Source of the DNA: a virus
Lineage: Duplodnaviria > Heunggongvirae > Uroviricota > Caudoviricetes
DNA length: 21,441 nt
Reading direction: 5' to 3' (one strand)
IMG/VR virus record: IMGVR_UViG_2695420728_000017
The notes below the pieces were generated by a model that was not told the DNA's origin, did no database searches, and saw nothing but the letters and a program-made list of their open reading frames with translations. Shown here in pieces: positions 1 to 12,589 of the stretch. Positions within the stretch are counted from its first letter, which is position 1, and the number at the start of each line of letters is the position of its first letter. A program made the position numbers and the translations under genes.

Positions 1-1719
1 CTGGAATGCCGGGCCAGCCACTCCATTCAGTTTCGGAGTAACCGTGGCACTGCCGGCGGTGAACACCAGCTCCAGCGTCTGCCAGTCGTTACCGTAATCG
101 CCGAACTCCCCCAGCTTCGTGTTTCCGGCTTTCCTGTGATGCATCAGATTCACTCTACCGTCAGTGGTCTGAGTGAAGTACGACATCAGGAACGGATTAC
201 CGGTACCCGTCATCGCCACACCATCAGGAACGGGAGCATCCGTATACAGATAAATCCCCAGCCCGAACTGATTGTTGGTCAGTGCGCCTGACAGGCGGAA
301 CTTACAGGTCAGTCTGCCGCCCTGTGTCAGCAGGGTAATTGCGTCATCCACCGGATGCGTCAGGGACCAGGTTTTATTGCTCTGCTTGGTGATCTTAAAT
401 ACACCATCTGACAACTGAATTCCGCCATCCTTAATGCTCCAGCCCTGCGCAGCAGCCTCTCCGGCTGCCGGCAGCAGGGAGATTGTGCGAACGGACGTAT
501 CTGCAGACGGACCCGATGGCGTGTTGCCGCCGGGCGAGGGTTTGATTTCCGGTGCCTTACCACTGATGAAGGCTGAGGTGCGCCCGGCTGCGTTCAGAAT
601 AGCGGTTGCCAGACGATCCGGAATAATGCTCCTGCGCGCCCATGAACTGAAATGTGTCGGGCGGTTTGATGATACCTGGTTTCCATTCGTTCTCGATGCC
701 GCACCGTAATATCCTGATGCCGGAATATCCGGATCTTCTGCCGGCGCGTTAGTGGCGGTATTGACGCCGTTACCGTCTGTCATGAAGGGCACAAAATAAA
801 CGCCCTCACTCTCCCTGTTTTTATACCCGCCGTACACGGTGTCGTACTGGGTAGCGTATGTATTTTTCCAGTAATACGTCGTGTCACCACAAATCCACGG
901 CACATCTGCAGCACTGCCACCATGGCACTGCGCGTTAAACACGGAGAGGTCAGCACGAAACTGTGTCAGCATGGCTGTAAACAGCGCAGGTTGCTGTGCG
1001 TGGGTGGCGGCGCTCATGTCAAACTCACCCTGCATCCAGCAGACGGCCAGCAGAACGTTTTTGGGATTTTTCTGCAATGCCGCTTTTGTGCGGGAAATCA
1101 GATCCTGATATAACGGCTTGCCCACCCCCCAGCGTGCCGAATCCTGACTGGCCCCCGTGGACTCGCTGAATGTCCCCTCCGCGCCCTGGGTAAATGCCGA
1201 ACCACCACGACAGCATGGTACCAGCAGGATCCCCGCGTTATTCGGGATATACGGGAGCAGTTTTTTGGCAATATGTAAACCCTGGCCGACACAGCCGTAC
1301 TGCCCTTTGCTCAGGTCAGCCCTCGGATGATTCAGCGTACTCATATCCTGCACATCATGCAGACAGTGGTCAGCCGGAATAATATCGTTATATCTGCAGG
1401 CAGCCCCGCCCGGCGTCACTGTACTGCGGCGCGCCAGCTGTTTAATGCGCGGATCCGGAGCATCGTATGAATCCGGCAGCGGAAGCCCTTCACCGTAAGC
1501 CATGGCATTGGACTGCCCGGCCAGTACGATGACGTAGTACCAATCCGGCTCAGATGAAGGGCCGACCTGTGGCTCTCCTTCAATAGCCACCGCCTGCATC
1601 AGTGTGTACGGCGTAATGGCAACCGGTCCGCCGTATGGCTGCCAGCCCTCTTTCAGTTTGTGTGTCAGCTTTTCCGCAAGGTCTGACGGCGACGCCGCCC
1701 TGACAACATCATAATTTTT
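1..1719 (-). pseudogene. 5'-truncated tandem paralog of nanS-p (sialate O-acetylesterase); 3' end runs off the window
   Basis: Bases 1-1719 align with 1846-3564 (offset 1845). ORF-track peptides 360-563/2205-2408 and 434-709/2279-2554 are identical; 881-1108 vs 2726-2953 differ at several residues. Minus-strand frame is open from 1719 to the window edge and keeps the GQSNAMAYG block, but has no start codon: it begins KNYDVV directly in frame after TAA-TAA (1720-1725) ending the upstream copy. First in-frame ATG is about codon 44. Confidence 0.5.
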
Positions 1720-1722
1720 TTA

Positions 1723-3573
1723 TTATGCTGCCGGTGCATTTATCTCCAGCATCAGACTTTCTATCTCAACGCCATACGCTGCATTTTTTGTAACATCCGT
1801 CAGCGTCAGCGCATTCAGTCCCAGTGTCAGACTGTCTTTTATAACCTGGAATGCCGGGCCAGCCACTCCATTCAGTTTCGGAGTAACCGTGGCACTGCCG
1901 GCGGTGAACACCAGCTCCAGCGTCTGCCAGTCGTTACCGTAATCGCCGAACTCCCCCAGCTTCGTGTTTCCGGCTTTCCTGTGATGCATCAGATTCACCC
2001 TGCCGTCAGTGGTCTGAGTGAAGTACGACATCAGGAACGGATTACCGGTACCCGTCATCGCCACACCATCAGGAACGGGAGCATCCGTATACAGATAAAT
2101 CCCCAGCCCGAACTGATTGTTGGTCAGTGCGCCTGACAGGCGGAACTTACAGGTCAGTCTGCCGCCCTGTGTCAGCAGGGTAATTGCGTCATCCACCGGA
2201 TGCGTCAGGGACCAGGTTTTATTGCTCTGCTTGGTGATCTTAAATACACCATCTGACAACTGAATTCCGCCATCCTTAATGCTCCAGCCCTGCGCAGCAG
2301 CCTCTCCGGCTGCCGGCAGCAGGGAGATTGTGCGAACGGACGTATCTGCAGACGGACCCGATGGCGTGTTGCCGCCGGGCGAGGGTTTGATTTCCGGTGC
2401 CTTACCACTGATGAAGGCTGAGGTGCGCCCGGCTGCGTTCAGAATAGCGGTTGCCAGACGATCCGGAATAATGCTCCTGCGCGCCCATGAACTGAAATGT
2501 GTCGGGCGGTTTGATGATACCTGGTTTCCATTCGTTCTCGATGCCGCACCGTAATATCCTGATGCCGGAATATCCGGATCTTCTGCCGGCGCGTTAGTGG
2601 CGGTATTGACGCCGTTACCGTCTGTCATGAAGGGCACAAAATAAACGCCCTCACTCTCCCTGTTTTTATACCCGCCGTACACGGTGTCGTACTGGGTAGC
2701 GTATGTATTTTTCCAGTAATACGTCGTGTCACCACAAATCCACGGCACATTTACAGCACTGCCACCATGGCACTGCGCGTTAAACACAGTGAGGTCAGCA
2801 CGAAACTGCTTCAGCATGGCTGTAAACAGCGCAGGTTGCTGTGCGTGGGTGGCGGCGCTCATGTCAAACTCTCCCTGCATCCAGCACACCGCCAGCAACA
2901 CATTTTTCGGGTTCTTCTGTAATGCAGCTTTAGTGCGCGCAATCAGGTCCTGATATAACGGTTTACCCACACCCCAGCGTGCCGAATCCTGGCTGGCCCC
3001 CGTGTCCGCACTGAATGTCCCCTCCGCGCCCTGGGTGAATGCCGAACCACCACGACAGCATGGTACCAGCAGGATCCCCGCGTTATTCGGGATATACGGG
3101 AGCAGTTTTTTGGCAATATGTAAGCCCTGGCCGACACAGCCGTACTGCCCTTTGCTCAGGTCTGCCTTCGGATGATTCAGCGTACTCATATCCTGCACAT
3201 CATGCAGGCAGTGGTCGGCCGGAATAATATCGTTATATCTGCATGCAGCCCCACCCGGCGTAACTGTACTGCGGCGCGCCAGCTGTTTAATGCGCGGATC
3301 CGGAGCATCGTATGAATCCGGCAGCGGAAGCCCTTCACCGTAAGCCATGGCATTGGACTGCCCGGCCAGTACGATGACGTAGTACCAATCCGGCTCAGTT
3401 GCACCACTGACCACCACATCACCTTCTGCTGTAATCGCCTGCATCAGGGTATAAGGGGTTATGGCCACCGGACTACCAAACGGCTGCCAGCCCTCTTTCA
3501 GTTTGTGTGTCAGCTTTTCCGCAAGGTCTGACGGCGACGCCGCCCTGACAACATCATAATGTTTAAATGTCAT
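1723..3573 (-). CDS. nanS-p: prophage-encoded sialate O-acetylesterase NanS-p (SGNH/SASA esterase with N-terminal DUF1737-like and C-terminal lectin-like regions)
   Basis: 616-aa ORF with ATG at 3571-3573; contains the LAGQSNAMAYGEG esterase block. Size and domain order match the nanS-p genes found downstream of stx/tRNA in lambdoid prophages. Sits downstream of the tRNA trio on the same strand. Confidence 0.85.
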   Translation of the reverse strand: MTFKHYDVVRAASPSDLAEKLTHKLKEGWQPFGSPVAITPYTLMQAITAEGDVVVSGATEPDWYYVIVLAGQSNAMAYGEGLPLPDSYDAPDPRIKQLARRSTVTPGGAACRYNDIIPADHCLHDVQDMSTLNHPKADLSKGQYGCVGQGLHIAKKLLPYIPNNAGILLVPCCRGGSAFTQGAEGTFSADTGASQDSARWGVGKPLYQDLIARTKAALQKNPKNVLLAVCWMQGEFDMSAATHAQQPALFTAMLKQFRADLTVFNAQCHGGSAVNVPWICGDTTYYWKNTYATQYDTVYGGYKNRESEGVYFVPFMTDGNGVNTATNAPAEDPDIPASGYYGAASRTNGNQVSSNRPTHFSSWARRSIIPDRLATAILNAAGRTSAFISGKAPEIKPSPGGNTPSGPSADTSVRTISLLPAAGEAAAQGWSIKDGGIQLSDGVFKITKQSNKTWSLTHPVDDAITLLTQGGRLTCKFRLSGALTNNQFGLGIYLYTDAPVPDGVAMTGTGNPFLMSYFTQTTDGRVNLMHHRKAGNTKLGEFGDYGNDWQTLELVFTAGSATVTPKLNGVAGPAFQVIKDSLTLGLNALTLTDVTKNAAYGVEIESLMLEINAPAA

Positions 3574-3756
3574 TATTCCTCCCGGCCGGGATAGTGTATT
3601 AAATCAGATATGGAGTGGGCTGTAGTCCGGAAGCCTGAATGACACACGGGGACTACAGCCCAAGAAATGAAAAAAGGCCACGCAGTTGCGCAGCCTGATA
3701 AACCCTGGTTAAAATCCACACGATAACAACACAACAATATCAGTATCTCATGCTAT

Positions 3757-3782
3757 TGCCCGAACCCATTCGGGCATTTTTT
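3757..3782 (+). terminator. intrinsic terminator, plus strand only
   Basis: Perfect 8-bp stem TGCCCGAA/TTCGGGCA with CCCA loop followed by TTTTTT. The minus-strand version has no U-tract. Confidence 0.5.
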
Positions 3783-3787
3783 ACCCA

Positions 3788-3815
3788 TAAAAAATGCCCC
3801 TCCGGAGAGGGGCAT
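3788..3815 (-). terminator. intrinsic terminator, minus strand (between TerB operon and nanS-p)
   Basis: 9-bp stem ATGCCCCTC/GAGGGGCAT with 4-nt loop; on the minus strand it is followed by TTTTTTAT. Plus-strand side has only GTTTG. Confidence 0.55.
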
Positions 3816-3980
3816 GTTTGCATGCACATTCTTTTTCTTGCATGGTGCCGGGTGCCTCCCGGTGAATTCAGTATCAGCACCTGAATCCGCGATTATCCCA
3901 TATACCTGGTTGCTGATCGCCCCTCCGCACAGGGGGATTCACCATGCAGAAGTGTTTTTAATAAACAGCAAACAAAAAAA

Positions 3981-4148
3981 TCAAGCATTATGCAGGCTGT
4001 TTCTTTTTATCACCGGCCACAGCAATACCACAATGCCGCAGACCAGCACCCCATCCGCCAGCACCGACATGATTCTGCTGGTGAGATCCACCATCACCAC
4101 CAGAAACAGCAGGAGTGCAGCCACAGCCAGGCGCAGTTTTACCGTCAC
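3981..4148 (-). CDS. small hydrophobic protein (~55 aa, two predicted TM segments), translationally coupled to TerB-family gene
   Basis: GTG start at 4146-4148 overlaps the TGA stop of the upstream gene. Translation VTVKLRLAVAALLLFLVVMVDLTSRIMSVLADGVLVCGIVVLLWPVIKRNSLHNA; stop at 3981-3983. Not in ORF track (<60 aa). Confidence 0.25.
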   Translation of the reverse strand: MTVKLRLAVAALLLFLVVMVDLTSRIMSVLADGVLVCGIVVLLWPVIKRNSLHNA

Positions 4149-4576
4149 AGGTGATTCTCCAGACGAAGACCCAGAACACCGGCAATCTCTTCCAGCACCT
4201 TGCGCTCTTCCGGCTCAATTTCGCCGTCTGCCTCCGCAATGGCCACCGCCACATCCAGCACATCTTCCGCTTCACGCGTATCGTGTTTCACATCCTCAAT
4301 CTCGCGTAACGCGGCACGACGACCAATTTTAAAATTGGTATCCAGCTGACCGATAATGGTTGCGCTAATCGCATTAATTTCCGAGGTAAACGCAGACAAC
4401 GCAGGCTGATTACGTAAGACCTGTTCGATCTTCGCTTTCTCGGATGCCTCGCATTCACCATCTGCATAGGCCACCAGGTATGCAGCGTTAATCACCGCCT
4501 GTGCCAGATCGCGTTTCTCAAACTTTTTAATTTCCGCTGCCGCTCTGCGGGTTTTCTTTTTGAAGATTCCAAACAT
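4145..4576 (-). CDS. TerB-family (tellurite-resistance TerB-like) protein
   Basis: Internal ATG at 4574-4576 preceded by AAGGAA RBS gives a 143-aa protein MFGIFKKKTRR...; paired acidic motifs (AYADGECEASEK and AEADGEIEPEER) match TerB architecture. The ORF-track 24-codon N-terminal extension (GTG at 4648) lacks an RBS. Confidence 0.65.
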   Translation of the reverse strand: MFGIFKKKTRRAAAEIKKFEKRDLAQAVINAAYLVAYADGECEASEKAKIEQVLRNQPALSAFTSEINAISATIIGQLDTNFKIGRRAALREIEDVKHDTREAEDVLDVAVAIAEADGEIEPEERKVLEEIAGVLGLRLENHL

Positions 4577-4708
4577 CGTGACGTTCCTTTGGGTGGGTGA
4601 GCCAACGCCCGGGAGCGATCTGCCCACAGAGAAAGTCACACTGACCACTCCGTAAGCTCACCCCCGAAAGGCTCTGTGGTTGATATGCGCCGGGCGTGGC
4701 GCAGATAC

Positions 4709-4732
4709 AAAAAAGGCCCGCCGAAGCGAGCC
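4709..4732 (-). terminator. intrinsic terminator just 3' of the tRNA cluster
   Basis: On the minus strand: 7-bp stem GGCTCGC/GCGGGCC (one G-U) with UUCG tetraloop followed by TTTTTT (plus-strand A-run 4709-4714). Confidence 0.45.
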
Positions 4733-4745
4733 TGGAAAATAAGTG

Positions 4746-4822
4746 TGGCGCGTTGTAGTGGAGTCTAACCACTGACCGATTGCTTAGAAGGCAATTGCTC
4801 TGTCCGACTGAGCTAACAACGC
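4746..4822 (-). tRNA. argO: tRNA-Arg (anticodon TCT, decodes AGA/AGG); atypical T-loop
   Basis: 77-nt cloverleaf by hand: acceptor GCGTTGT/ACAACGC, D-arm GCTC/GAGC, anticodon stem ATTGC/GCAAT with loop CT-TCT-AA, T-stem AGTGG/CCACT, encoded CCA. T-loop is TTAGACT (A at position 56 instead of C). Third position in an Ile-Arg-Arg trio as in Stx-phage ileZ-argN-argO. Confidence 0.6.
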
Positions 4823-4835
4823 ATGATGCTGATAA

Positions 4836-4912
4836 TGGACCGCCATCGGGGACTTGAACCCCGCGCAGCCAGCTTCGAAGGCTGGCGCTCTGTCCCGATG
4901 AGCTAATAGCGG
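4836..4912 (-). tRNA. argN: tRNA-Arg (anticodon TCG, decodes CGA/CGG)
   Basis: 77-nt cloverleaf: acceptor CCGCTAT/ATGGCGG (one G-U), D-arm GCTC/GAGC, anticodon stem CCAGC/GCTGG with loop CT-TCG-AA, T-arm CGGGG-TTCAAGT-CCCCG, encoded CCA. Confidence 0.75.
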
Positions 4913-4921
4913 TATGTAATA

Positions 4922-4997
4922 TGGTGGCCCTTGCTGGATTTGAACCAGCGACCTGGCGATTATGAGTCGCTCGCTCTCACCACTGAGCTAAAGGGCC
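4922..4997 (-). tRNA. ileZ: tRNA-Ile2-like (anticodon CAT, lysidine type; close to ileX/ileY)
   Basis: 76-nt cloverleaf: acceptor GGCCCTT/AAGGGCC, D-arm GCTC-AGTGGTGA-GAGC, anticodon loop CT-CAT-AA, T-arm GCTGG-TTCAAAT-CCAGC, discriminator A, CCA. Near-identical in layout to E. coli ileX as I recall it. A CAT anticodon alone cannot exclude tRNA-Met. Confidence 0.8.
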
Positions 4998-5025
4998 GAG
5001 CCAAAAAATAATAATCAGATGAAAA

Positions 5026-5739
5026 TCAATAATCAAGCCCTTGCCTGGATACATATCTGTCTGGCGGGAAGCCATAATAGCGGTGAAATACAGAAATAAA
5101 GTAGGACCTGCTTGAATAACCGCATTTTTCTGCTATAGCCTGTCCATATCCATGCCGGGAACATAACATATTTACAGCAACACGCATCCGCTCTTCCAGC
5201 AACAAGCGACTGAACATGCCCCCTTCATTTTTCAGTTTTGTCTTTAACAAACTCTCACTCATATGCAACTGTAGAGCAATCGCACCAAGCGTCCAGCTTG
5301 CTGATATATCTGTCTGAATTATCGCCCTGACTTTGGCACTTATGCTGGATAAACATCCACTTAAAAACAATGACATCCGTTCATCTGTTTCAAACAGAGA
5401 CAGGCAGGCCATCATAAGAAACATATCCGTGGCCTCTCCGGAAAATCCCTGGCTGGTAATTAAAGCCGCAGCCAACGCAGGATTGTTGGGTTCCAGCAAC
5501 AGGTAAAGCGGAATGTCAGTCAGACGAGTCCTCGTCAGCTTATGCTGACTTTCCAGATATTGACTTACGACGGATTCGCTTATATCGACAATTTTAACTT
5601 TGCCATAATGCATAAGGAAAAGCTCCCTGATGCATTTGGTGGCCAGAACAACTGAGCCTGGCTTAAGTGACAACGTATCCTTTTCAAGAAAAATATTAAT
5701 TGGGGAGCAAACCATGATAACTGAACAGACAACAGCCAT
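5026..5739 (-). CDS. AraC/XylS-family transcriptional regulator (prophage moron; AppY/PatE-like class)
   Basis: 237-aa ORF; C-terminal dual HTH region (…AIALQLHMSESLLKTKLKNEGGMFSRLLLEERM… and …GYSSRSYFISVFHRYYGFPP) is typical of AraC family. Stop lies 28 bp upstream of the tRNA-Ile 5' end. Confidence 0.75.
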   Translation of the reverse strand: MAVVCSVIMVCSPINIFLEKDTLSLKPGSVVLATKCIRELFLMHYGKVKIVDISESVVSQYLESQHKLTRTRLTDIPLYLLLEPNNPALAAALITSQGFSGEATDMFLMMACLSLFETDERMSLFLSGCLSSISAKVRAIIQTDISASWTLGAIALQLHMSESLLKTKLKNEGGMFSRLLLEERMRVAVNMLCSRHGYGQAIAEKCGYSSRSYFISVFHRYYGFPPDRYVSRQGLDY

Positions 5740-6071: not shown

Positions 6072-6349
6072 GTCTTTTTACCCTTTCCGGTTAACGTGAC
6101 ATACCAATAACTCTTGTCTAAAAAGCCAGCAAGATAAAAAGCCAGTATTCACGACCACCAGCGTGTTTACTGTACTGCACCAGGTTTACAGGTACAAAAA
6201 AACCGCTCAGCGGCGGGTTTAAGTTGTGTGGCGAAGTAACCACTCTTAACACACTAATAGCATTTTTGTTATAACACAAGTAGCTCATTCAGTATTTTTA
6301 GAATCTTGACTTTCTTAAGCACGGAGAACTCTGAATACCAAACATAAAA

Positions 6350-6968
6350 TCAATTATCTTCCAGGCCGGATGCTATCAACGAAAGCCTCTCAAAAAACGC
6401 TGTAGCAGCCTTGTCCAAAGTTGAATAAGTACTGTATTCTCCGTGTTCGGGACCAACCACTACCCATGGTCGTCTTTTTGGGATTCGGGACTTCTCAGAA
6501 ATCACTGTTCCAGATATACCAATATCAATTGTTACACCTGTTATTATTTTCTCTTCATCTCTTTCCCTGAACTCAATTGCCATAAATGCCGTTTTTTTTT
6601 CGTTTCCCGTTTTTAAAAAAATCAAATAAAGCAAAGCGATGCTCATTAAAATCAACACCCCATCGTCCTTCAGGATAAAGGGCATGAAAGTTGTCATTTA
6701 CGCTCTGCATCGTCTCATAAGCTTTAACTTCTAAATCTCCATAGTGCATAGATACCGCGCAGGAGTCACTGGGTAACTGTATTTTCCCAAGATTGAAAAC
6801 CTTTACTGCTCCAGAACTATGGCATCTTGCCCGCAATTTATCCCCATTTATACTAATCGGAGAAATATTCCTTAATGTTCCGGGCTGGCTCCCTCCTAAG
6901 TAAACGACTGTTAAAGATTGCTTATTTTCAATTGCATCAACTAATACATGCTCTACATTTTTATCCAT
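6350..6968 (-). pseudogene. frameshifted gene of unknown function (possible WYL-like fold); frames switch at an A9 homopolymer
   Basis: ATG at 6966-6968 with GGGAGG RBS 7 nt upstream. The N-terminal frame (126 codons, ends TGA at 6573-6575) and the C-terminal frame (continues to 6350) overlap at 6573-6697 and are joined by a 1-nt shift at the T9 run 6592-6600 (A9 in the mRNA). Deleting one A gives a continuous ~206-aa protein. Confidence 0.5.
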
Positions 6969-7043
6969 AATAACCTCCCAATGAACAGGTATCATCAGGA
7001 GGTTATTATAAAATATGATTATTTACTTTGATTGAATTTATTA

Positions 7044-7415
7044 CTATATGTAACAATCAATTTCTAAAGATACCCCCAACATTGCCAGACAACCGTCAAT
7101 AAACCCTTCAGCTTTCTGCAGTCTGATAACAACCTGATTAAGTGATATCCCCAGTTTTACCCCCAACGCCCGTAATGTAACCCCATACACATAATACATT
7201 TCCAGTAATTCGTATTGATACGGTTCCTTTTTCTTAAGAACTGTCATCGCAGAGCTAATGATCAGGCCATCGTCATCGCTACATTGCGGGCGGGATTTTA
7301 CTTTCGAAGGAATTAATCCCTTAAAACCTGCAGCAACAGATGACCATTCCACATCCTCGTGATTATTTGCCACCCATGCCCCCCAACGTTCAAGAACCAT
7401 TTGAATATCACGCAT
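7044..7415 (-). CDS. late-gene antiterminator Q (lambdoid Q family, QuuD-like)
   Basis: ATG at 7413-7415 with GGAGAAAG RBS gives 123 aa starting MRDIQMVLERWGAWVANNHEDV, which matches my recollection of DLP12 QuuD. The ORF-track start at 7430 is a TTG with no RBS. Confidence 0.8.
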   Translation of the reverse strand: MRDIQMVLERWGAWVANNHEDVEWSSVAAGFKGLIPSKVKSRPQCSDDDGLIISSAMTVLKKKEPYQYELLEMYYVYGVTLRALGVKLGISLNQVVIRLQKAEGFIDGCLAMLGVSLEIDCYI

Positions 7416-7432
7416 CAACTTTCTCCACAAAA

Positions 7433-11986: not shown

Positions 11987-12589
11987 GATGGCAGCCTCCG
12001 TTGACAGTGAAAAACTTCCACCACCGGAAACGCCAATTTCACTGGTGGTGAACTGGACGGGGTTGGCGTAACCGGCGTCAACGGAGACCGGCGCACCTTT
12101 CGGTGCCCCCGCCCAGCCCACCATAATCTGGATGTGAGCAAATGCGGACGATAAAAAAGACGCTGGCGCGTCATACATCGCCGTTGACAATTTCAGGACG
12201 CCAATCCCGGCACCCGCTTTATAAGGTGCCTGAACAGTGTAACGTCCCGGAATTGCAGAGTCAATATGCTGGTGGTCCTTCACACTCAACAAAATCACGC
12301 CTGAATTTCCACAAAGGACTAAAGCACTCATGCGGGTAGTCTTTGCGAAGATAGATAACGCGCTGTGTTTCTGGCTCCCAACGAATAACATGAACATAAA
12401 GTCCTCTTCCGTCACGAAACCAGCGGTTAAGTTCCTGCACAACTCGCCCCCCACAGTCAGGTAAAGTTCTCTGTGGTTACTTACAGCCAGGTGATTTGGT
12501 AATCTGCATTCATGCCGTAACAACAGGTGTGCAGCGACACTGACCACCAGCTGTTGCGACAAACGGTTATTTGCCGTTAAACTGTTCAT
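11987..12589 (-). CDS. unassigned 201-codon open frame, in frame with and directly upstream of Rha (possible separate gene or N-terminal extension)
   Basis: ATG at 12587-12589 overlaps the stop of the upstream YdaT-like gene (ATGA) and has GGAGA about 10 nt upstream. The frame stays open for 201 codons into the Rha ATG while the other two minus frames are full of stops (hand translation). No family recognised; composition is unusual. Confidence 0.3.

Follow-up and report, generated by a model that had tools for sequence, protein, structure and literature searches.

A tciA–tciB gene pair behind a candidate regulatory leader in the toxin cargo site of a lambdoid prophage

What occupies the site at which Shiga toxin 2 (Stx2) phages carry stxAB when the toxin genes are replaced, and what might such cargo do? 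The question is raised by positions 3981 to 4576 of a 21,441-nt stretch of Caudoviricetes DNA (IMG/VR record IMGVR_UViG_2695420728_000017; the whole stretch is called the window below). An earlier reading of the letters alone (the original prediction) had placed there a TerB-like gene and a small coupled membrane open reading frame (ORF) as an alternative cassette in the toxin slot. We identify the locus here as tciA–tciB, an accessory module of phages; this identification rests on Pfam, PHROG and PDB sequence matches, on the predicted structure and its best folds, on homology to phage P1, and on RefSeq annotation. The joint explanation that we favour, and to which we give about an even chance, combines this identity with the late-operon cargo site, expression from the late operon, a leader RNA that would gate translation, and a TciA module that would be tethered to the membrane.

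Both genes lie on the minus strand: tciA (4576..4145, ATG start) encodes a predicted cytoplasmic, all-helical TerB-domain protein of 143 amino acids (aa), and tciB (4148..3981, GTG start) a predicted DUF3927 protein of 55 aa with two transmembrane (TM) segments. The hidden Markov model search that had been proposed as a check for the TerB domain was run and matched residues 26–138 of TciA to Pfam TerB (PF05099; E=2.9e-16, 60.2 bits against a cut-off of 24.4), which bears out the predicted TerB-like gene at these coordinates; over its full length TciA matched phrog_632, 'tellurite resistance' (E=1.7e-69). TciB matched Pfam DUF3927 (PF13064; E=4.9e-16, 58.9 bits, cut-off 25) and, over its full length, phrog_1470, 'TciB-like inhibition of cell division or resistance to colicin' (E=1.9e-28). 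Its GTG overlaps the tciA stop codon by 4 nt (GTGA; CTGTGACG), and its Kyte-Doolittle hydropathy profile has two hydrophobic peaks at about residues 8–19 and 31–44. The DUF3927 match, the overlap and the two peaks thus agree with the GTG-coupled, 55-aa two-TM ORF of the original prediction, and the conservation that had been expected of a genuine small ORF was found as well: GTG start and 4-nt overlap are kept in 78 of 80 near-identical viral contigs, and in 15 of 17 genomes of other species the TerB gene has a TciB-like ORF coupled to its 3' end, with overlaps of 1, 4 or 8 nt. The 17-genome set covers Franconibacter, Pantoea, Pseudescherichia, Buttiauxella, Dryocola, Serratia, Pectobacterium and a member of the Aeromonadaceae, among others.

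The TciB-like ORFs of other genera share the motif ..DF(T/S)S….S(V/I)L(A/S)DG.., which is also conserved in P1, Pollock, Asesino and Fostie; the VDLTS variant of the present TciB (F22L within the conserved DFTS motif) was found in 4 of 80 loci only. Two further carriers of the pair, again beside tRNA genes, are Pollock, a virulent N4-like phage, and Asesino, an Erwinia phage of 246 kb; homologues were found in virulent N4-like, jumbo Erwinia, Pseudomonas and Vibrio phages. The DUF3927/TciB family is small (52 clusters at 50% identity). Across the genomes compared, tciA and tciB remain tightly coupled, whether in E. coli prophages, in P1, in N4-like phages or in jumbo Erwinia phages. Because the tciB start codon overlaps the tciA stop codon, TciA and TciB are presumably made together.

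An AlphaFold2 model of TciA, run with 17 homologues, is all-helical (predicted local distance difference test score, 88.7), with a less confident basic N-terminal helix. The best folds found for this model in the PDB by Foldseek were TerB-like (2h5n and 2ou3), as weak matches (E=0.02–1.2, template-modelling score about 0.55). By sequence, the closest solved relative is KP-TerB (2JXU; E=4.4e-8, residues 14–137), a TerB of the terZABCDEF type, which is of the same Pfam family, has the same acidic motifs and is, judged by the model of TciA, similarly all-helical. In TciA these motifs are D39-G40…E46 and D117-G118…E124, and all six residues are invariant or at least 90% conserved among 17 homologues with identities down to 51%; the paired acidic DG....E motifs of TerB are reportedly a proposed metal site. 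TciA differs from the TerB of ter clusters in having a small membrane partner, in lacking TerC/D/E/Z, and in being found in phage genomes, including virulent ones. Other matches of TciA were weak, namely to DjlA (NCBIfam, 1e-6) and DUF533 (Pfam, 3.4e-5), both far below the family cut-offs. Since tciA differs from the PPyecE gene by 41 synonymous and 3 non-synonymous codon changes, it is, on this count, under strong purifying selection; for tciB (6 synonymous and 4 non-synonymous changes) selection is less clear than for tciA.

The names tciA and tciB derive from phage P1 (GenBank AF234173), and tciA-tciB(-tciC) of P1-like and D6-like phage-plasmids is one of the closest known systems, with the same TerB gene followed by a two-TM gene of about 54 aa. 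P1 TciA is 42% identical to TciA of the window, and P1 TciB shares the motif LLFLVV..DFTS..S.LADG.LV...WP..K; the P1 pair, too, lies beside tRNA genes, including tRNA-Ile2 (CAT), and is accessory and non-essential. In both loci the tciA stop and tciB start overlap, by 1 nt in P1 and by 4 nt (GTGA) here. The two loci differ in their operons: tciA-tciB-tciC of P1, with tRNA-Asn/Thr on one side and tRNA-Ile2 on the other, belongs to the ban operon, which is under C1 control and is not a Q-dependent late operon. Furthermore, P1 is without the structured leader described below, and it has a third gene of 35 aa, tciC, whereas here the small RNA (sRNA) gene STnc100 follows tciB. A 31-aa ORF that overlaps the tciB stop codon inside STnc100 (3988..3893) was considered as an equivalent of tciC and rejected, having no likeness to P1 TciC when placed side by side.

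The pair has been named and annotated before. GenBank uses tciA/tciB in JLK-2012 and 'TciA/TerB-like protein' in another record, RefSeq annotates 'tellurite resistance TerB family protein | DUF3927 family protein', and PHROGs assigns both phrog_632 and phrog_1470 to the category 'moron'. A 100% identical copy is present in a dusA-integrated prophage of strain Z1323HEC0108 (RefSeq). At least 80% of 3981–4576 was found in 802 of 5426 complete E. coli genomes, at a median of 4 places per positive genome. Many genomes other than those of enterohaemorrhagic E. coli (EHEC) hold only a 75-nt remnant of the tciA 5' end, e.g. E. coli FDAARGOS_403 (locus L006, 2977–3090), where RefSeq records a partial 'DUF3927 domain-containing protein' pseudogene among insertion sequence elements. 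The gene pair, the family names and the concept of the slot are all previously known, and the find on its own changes little, as it is a named, widespread cargo pair in a published insertion site.

The original prediction had the pair bracketed, on the same strand, by a tRNA trio and nanS-p, as in Stx phages; both flanks were recovered by ARAGORN, Rfam and Pfam and by comparison with phage 933W. Upstream lie an ileZ-type CAT tRNA gene, Arg-TCG and Arg-TCT (4997..4746, minus strand; ARAGORN and Rfam tRNA), with 93.8% identity to ileZ-argN-argO of 933W. Downstream lies a gene for a nanS-p type sialate O-acetylesterase (3573..1723, minus strand; Pfam DUF1737, SASA and DUF6645), which is homologous to L0105 of 933W and is a 'SASA family carbohydrate esterase' in RefSeq. 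In blastn against 933W, positions 4698–5001 (ileZ-argN-argO and the terminator) aligned at 93.8% and positions 3466–3965 at 74.8%. Homology thus stops at 4698 and resumes at 3965, and the 732 bp between these junctions (3966–4697, minus strand; leader, tciA, tciB and the first 11 nt of STnc100) stand in place of 1369 bp with stxA2/stxB2 in 933W, which agrees with the proposed alternative cassette in the toxin slot. The GC content of the replaced segment is 0.53, and that of the whole window 0.49. The comparison of the interval across lambdoid phages that had been suggested found the cassette inserted with clean junctions against 933W and BP-4795, and found varying flanks elsewhere; Stx1 phages have in common with the window the downstream side only (3574–3961). 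These alignments show tciAB to sit in the late-operon cargo site of a lambdoid prophage, between the tRNA trio and the STnc100/AgvB pair described below, where Stx2 phages carry stxAB.

The expectation of terminators on both sides held in part. Upstream, a terminator scan, which returned 17 sites against 3.9 expected from shuffles, found a terminator-like hairpin (4733..4714) with a T-run (together 4703..4733, minus strand), which is annotated in 933W as the 'terminator upstream of the stx genes'; it shows a compensatory C:G to U:A change in PPyecE and a weak likeness to the 3' end of STnc100. Downstream, a hairpin is present as well, but it is STnc100's own terminator: hairpin and T-run at 3815..3794 end the STnc100 gene (3976..3783, minus strand; Rfam RF02076, full length, 142.7 bits against a gathering threshold of 47). 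A further terminator-like hairpin lies at 3696..3675, and a plus-strand terminator at 3757..3776. The gene for the anti-GcvB sRNA AgvB (3721..3782, plus strand; Rfam RF02702, full length, 96.5 bits) is convergent with STnc100. A CATAAT box that resembles a -10 element (3990..3985) overlaps the last tciB codons at the right distance from the modelled 5' end of STnc100, so the STnc100 promoter may lie inside the cassette.

Alternative cargo of the toxin slot is already in the literature, where TerB is not named. The sequence downstream of the Q-antiterminated PR' tolerates moron insertions, and convergent sRNA genes lie 3' of moron coding sequences in Sakai Sp3, 4, 5, 9, 10, 11, 15 and 17 (Tree et al. 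2014, PMC4104026), in a report that also gives the function of AgvB; STnc100 is found 75 nt downstream of stx2 as well (PMC12370729). The tciAB cassette thus shares with stxAB and other PR'-proximal moron cargo (PMC4104026) the interval, the tRNA/terminator side, and the convergent AgvB/AsxR-type and STnc100 sRNAs. It differs from stx, which has its own promoters and no structured leader, in being preceded by such a leader.

The same cassette was found behind Asn/Thr/Gly tRNAs in JLK-2012, behind no tRNAs in PPyecE_EH1910, directly before the holin gene in Evi, Fostie and Klebsiella phage 5, and behind differing Q genes. In the 80 near-identical viral contigs, homology breaks recur at three places: the upstream hairpin (about 4729–4733), the inside of the 3' end of tciB (4000–4021), and position 3840. 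In the IMG/VR loci (L014–L093), TciB has three C-terminal tail alleles (window, 3981–4020; …WPVIKRNSLHNA, …FPLVKKDMPGS and …FPLLKKKASGD). Judged by these comparisons, tciAB is mobile, mosaic cargo, and the site that it occupies is prone to recombination. It lies beside tRNA genes in four unrelated lineages, i.e. lambdoid phages, P1, D6-like phages and a jumbo Erwinia phage, with differing tRNA sets (window, 4746–4997; locus L004, 6964–7197; L007, 1616–3276; L012, 612–1082), and tRNAs are located at most 600 nt upstream in 55 of 80 IMG/VR loci. This adjacency could be due to co-mobilisation or to a shared cargo site.

A classical moron carries its own promoter. Here, no minus-strand sigma-70-like promoter was detected between 4745 and 4577 (the 170 nt before the ATG) in a consensus scan, and a candidate picked by eye in the leader (TTGTAT-N17-CATATC) was dismissed for its poor -10 box and its lack of conservation in other leader variants. 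The Q gene (7430..7044) and a stretch resembling qut/tR' of 933W (6191–6251) lie upstream of tciAB on the same strand. A WYL-domain gene (phrog_8498; 6350–6995), split into two overlapping ORFs, lies between them and puts Q about 800 bp from its presumed target site. We propose that tciAB probably owes most of its transcription to polymerase that starts at PR' after induction and reads through under Q antitermination. Expression in the lytic phase by read-through, and not constitutively in the lysogen, is argued for by the missing promoter, the upstream terminator, and the contexts in P1 and in virulent phages; that homologues are carried by strictly virulent phages, and by P1 in its C1-repressed ban operon, argues for a role in lytic growth, and not solely in lysogenic conversion.

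Translation of tciA, in turn, would probably be gated by a structured 5' leader of about 130 nt (4710..4577, minus strand; 102 bits in a covariance model), through pairing of an anti-Shine–Dalgarno (anti-SD) element with the ribosome-binding site. In the 5' to 3' direction, the leader comprises hairpin H0, the 5' arm of H1 (CCACAGAG), the anti-SD CCUUU, H2 (GGGTGAGC…GCTCACCC) enclosing H3, the sequence AAAGGAA, and the start codon. The loop of H3 holds the 3' arm of H1 (CTCTGTGG), which forms a pseudoknot with CCACAGAG, and CCUUU is predicted to be able to pair with AAAGG of the ribosome-binding site. Folding of the leader is more stable than that of shuffles (z = -3.7), and the leader is conserved even where TciA identity is 42% (Fostie, Klebsiella phage 5), in other genera, and in Asesino.

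The structures were tested on the same, mutually related sequences that had served to derive them, and H3 aligns poorly across subclasses; with this limit, in 17 diverse class-I leaders 86.2% of the paired cells were able to pair against 42–54% with slid partners, 12 pairs had two-sided changes (0 of 500 shuffles), and the covariation score was 0.190 against 0.136±0.009 in shuffles. The corresponding values for 15 class-II leaders were 90.7% against 28–55%, 7 two-sided pairs (4 of 500 shuffles), and 0.120 against 0.075±0.009. One H3 pair of the class-II set occurs as GC, CG, UG and UA, and 22 different H1 5' arms each have a matching 3' arm (e.g. CCGTAGAG/CTCTACGG, CCTGCAGA/TCTGCAGG, CGAGAG/CTCTCG and GAAAG/CTTTC). 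RNAalifold, given both classes together, recovered H2 and the anti-SD:SD helix. The many G·U pairs, and the much weaker covariance-model scores on the opposite strand, argue for an RNA in the sense of the gene. A nested minimum-energy fold was rejected as the main model (89.1% pairing against 92.3% with the pseudoknot, two-sided changes in 3 against 7 pairs), and may be a possible alternative conformer.

The leader is not confined to tciA. The covariance model found exactly one copy in the window, and, outside its seed, copies upstream of the antirepressor gene ant inside the lysis cassettes of BP-4795 and PPyecE; further copies lie at L010:4987-5106, L003:1937-2078, L002:4575-4716 and L012:1091-1218, and in about 100 IMG/VR loci (L111–L249). 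The IMG/VR pattern scans missed copies of the E. coli type, and the counts are hence lower bounds and not estimates of prevalence; of 119 distinct copies, 105 follow a T-run, and 15 unrelated protein families are encoded downstream. These include an NMT1/TAXI-like binding protein (phrog_6856), a glycosyltransferase (phrog_1579), membrane proteins and PHROGs of unknown function; a phrog_6856 gene also follows tciB in Asesino. A riboswitch specific to tciA was ruled out, since the leader precedes at least 15 unrelated gene families, and the functional unrelatedness of these genes also argues against a metabolite riboswitch.

Compact, SD-sequestering 5' untranslated regions (UTRs), to which the tciA leader with its U-rich anti-SD beside a pseudoknot may be likened, are known from the T4 gene 32 pseudoknot, the fourU thermometers and the SAM-II and preQ1-II riboswitches; the leader matches no Rfam family, by sequence or by covariance model. 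Against Rfam 15, positions 4577–4710 gave nothing at gathering level, and at E<=10 only noise hits and the terminator's likeness to the 3' end of STnc100. A text search of the literature for such a moron leader found no description. The leader may well be a cis-regulatory element of phage cargo genes that has so far gone undescribed. With confidence somewhat short of even, we suggest further that it may represent an undescribed, portable class of pseudoknotted phage 5' UTRs which sequester the ribosome-binding site and which, placed after a terminator and before various unrelated cargo genes, are shared by temperate and virulent Enterobacterales phages. If so, it would be a common translational gate for inserted genes, which might open in response to temperature, through an sRNA or a protein, or as the RNA folds co-transcriptionally behind Q-modified polymerase. 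If real and regulatory, the leader would explain how cargo between late-operon terminators is kept silent or switched on, and would be a useful marker for finding phage cargo genes.

For the function of the pair, a membrane-associated role in phage development is the best-supported guess, with exclusion in the prophage state as its main rival. A phage-exclusion or envelope-stress module, as in the original prediction, is conceivable. In the least certain step of our proposal, TciB would anchor or partner TciA at the inner membrane, and TciA–TciB would, by analogy, represent a split version of membrane-tethered TerB-like proteins such as DjlA, which consists of a TM helix, a TerB-like domain and a J domain. 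DjlA and YebE/DUF533 of E. coli carry the TerB-like domain at the cytoplasmic face of the inner membrane; the match of TciA to them is weak, any anchor here would be a separate co-translated protein, and there is no J domain, so that the likeness is one of analogy and not of family membership. TerB itself has been reported as a partner of TerC; amphitropic behaviour has been ascribed to TerB proteins, and a possible function in membrane surveillance is suggested by those who described a TerB-containing defence system. While the phage develops, the TciAB complex would serve as a membrane or ion-stress module: it might preserve membrane function in the infected cell, or provide resistance to pore-forming colicins and superinfecting phage. 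Tellurite resistance would not be among its effects. TerB domains are found in tellurite resistance, in DjlA and in several anti-phage systems, and tciAB, a very small form (one domain and a 55-aa partner) that occurs even in virulent phages, could be an easy, minimal two-protein model for what TerB does at membranes.

Several observations weigh against this proposal. The TciA–TciB partnership is not obligatory, because phage 434 (L009, 2606–3838) has TciB without TciA, located between predicted membrane proteins of 248 and 62 aa upstream of nanS-p, so DUF3927 can work with partners other than TerB, and because the TerB gene of Pseudomonas juntendi (L106) and Paracoccus (L110) is coupled to a different protein of about 67 aa (both at about 3400–3650). 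The latter partner has a single N-terminal hydrophobic segment and the motif C..(W/F)YGY…VGC.VKT..G, which suggests that the conserved theme is 'TerB plus small membrane partner', rather than TciB as such. Natural TerB–DUF3927 fusions were discarded as evidence for an interaction, as P0124 (197 aa) and P0186 (170 aa) are single-frameshift joins of overlapping genes and a third hit, P0249 (176 aa), is an unrelated fragment; one of the two frameshift 'fusions' is mislabelled 'zinc-finger family protein'. The promoter scan was a crude consensus search that could miss promoters that are weak or not of the sigma-70 type. The SD is unpaired when this one leader is folded to minimum energy, and its pairing comes from the alignment consensus only. 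The many EHEC copies fit phage-autonomous and host-benefit roles alike. The literature on tciA/tciB, DUF3927 and the RefSeq accessions yielded in-silico mentions only, with no functional test found, and tciA, tciB and tciC of P1 were non-essential in a CRISPR interference screen (PMC10695390), from which it follows that any role in lytic growth would be conditional.

In the main rival, defence by lysogenic conversion, TciA would sense membrane perturbation and TciB act as a small membrane effector, to exclude superinfecting phages or to resist pore-forming colicins, similar to the Phi and PacB phenotypes of the ter operon. We consider this unlikely, though a serious contender. It draws on the phage inhibition and colicin resistance given by the ter cluster, on the classical moron site and the PHROGs category, on the multiple copies of the cassette in EHEC, and on the expression of the neighbouring sRNA genes without induction. 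TerB domains are also part of the validated defence systems Shango (SngA), Bunzi (BnzA) and Dionysus (DinB), where they are likewise combined with membrane proteins; those systems, however, have helicase, ATPase or pore-forming partners, whereas tciAB has none of these, is phage-borne and does not lie in defence islands. The PADLOC-DB v2 models, which include TerB-containing systems, gave no significant match to TciA (only PDC-S48, E=0.0035 over 35 residues) and none to TciB. An own promoter was not found and a terminator lies directly upstream, strictly virulent phages with the pair have no lysogen to protect, and the P1 pair is in a repressor-controlled lytic operon; all of this speaks against defence of the lysogen.

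A further reading is a counter-defence decoy: TciA would mimic host TerB sensors (the Ter island, Shango/Bunzi/Dionysus-type systems or DjlA) and block their signalling in infection. Many phages, both virulent and temperate, carry the pair in transcription units of the early or late lytic phase, host defence systems do use TerB domains, and the pair is non-essential in a laboratory host that lacks such systems. We nevertheless regard a decoy as improbable, since it leaves the conserved membrane partner unexplained and since TciA is nearer to the TerB of ter operons than to the defence-system TerB models. An accessory to the holin, with TciB and its cytoplasmic partner tuning membrane energisation just before holin triggering, appears a shade more improbable still: in Evi, Fostie and Klebsiella phages tciAB does have Q as its direct neighbour on one side and the holin/endolysin genes on the other, and TciB of phage 434 lies among small membrane proteins upstream of the lysis cassette, but in P1, N4-like and jumbo phages the pair is in early regions far from the lysis genes, and in the window nanS-p and two sRNA genes separate it from them. 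A genuine tellurite-resistance determinant, as the database name has it, is very improbable despite the homology to TerB and the many carriers that are tellurite-resistant EHEC. Published resistance needs at least terBCDE-type sets, with terC–E in all resistance constructs, and one phage paper argues that a lone terB is inactive; EHEC resistance maps to a separate ter island (PMC8193136). This reading was rejected because the window lacks terC, terD, terE and terZ, and neither the window nor the identical RefSeq prophage contains any further ter gene.

Other features of the window were noted in passing. The nanS-p gene is tandemly duplicated (1–3573, minus strand): the full copy at 3573..1723 is followed by a second from 1719, which begins at codon 6, has neither a start codon nor a ribosome-binding site, and is cut short by the end of the window. 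As alleles the two copies differ (99.7% and 95.6% identity to the gene of phage 434), and the duplication junction was not found as one contiguous match in complete E. coli genomes. Between the PR'-proximal region and the tRNA genes lies an AraC-family gene (5026–5739, minus strand) whose nearest relatives are YdeO/GadX (NCBIfam, below cut-off); presumably it resembles the prophage-borne regulators of acid resistance and type III secretion of EHEC. At 12041–12229 (minus strand), Rfam predicts a C4 antisense RNA (81 bits) and, adjoining it, the Hfq-binding RNA isrK (62 bits), inside or beside a gene for which the annotation of the identical RefSeq prophage gives a phage regulatory protein of the Rha family.

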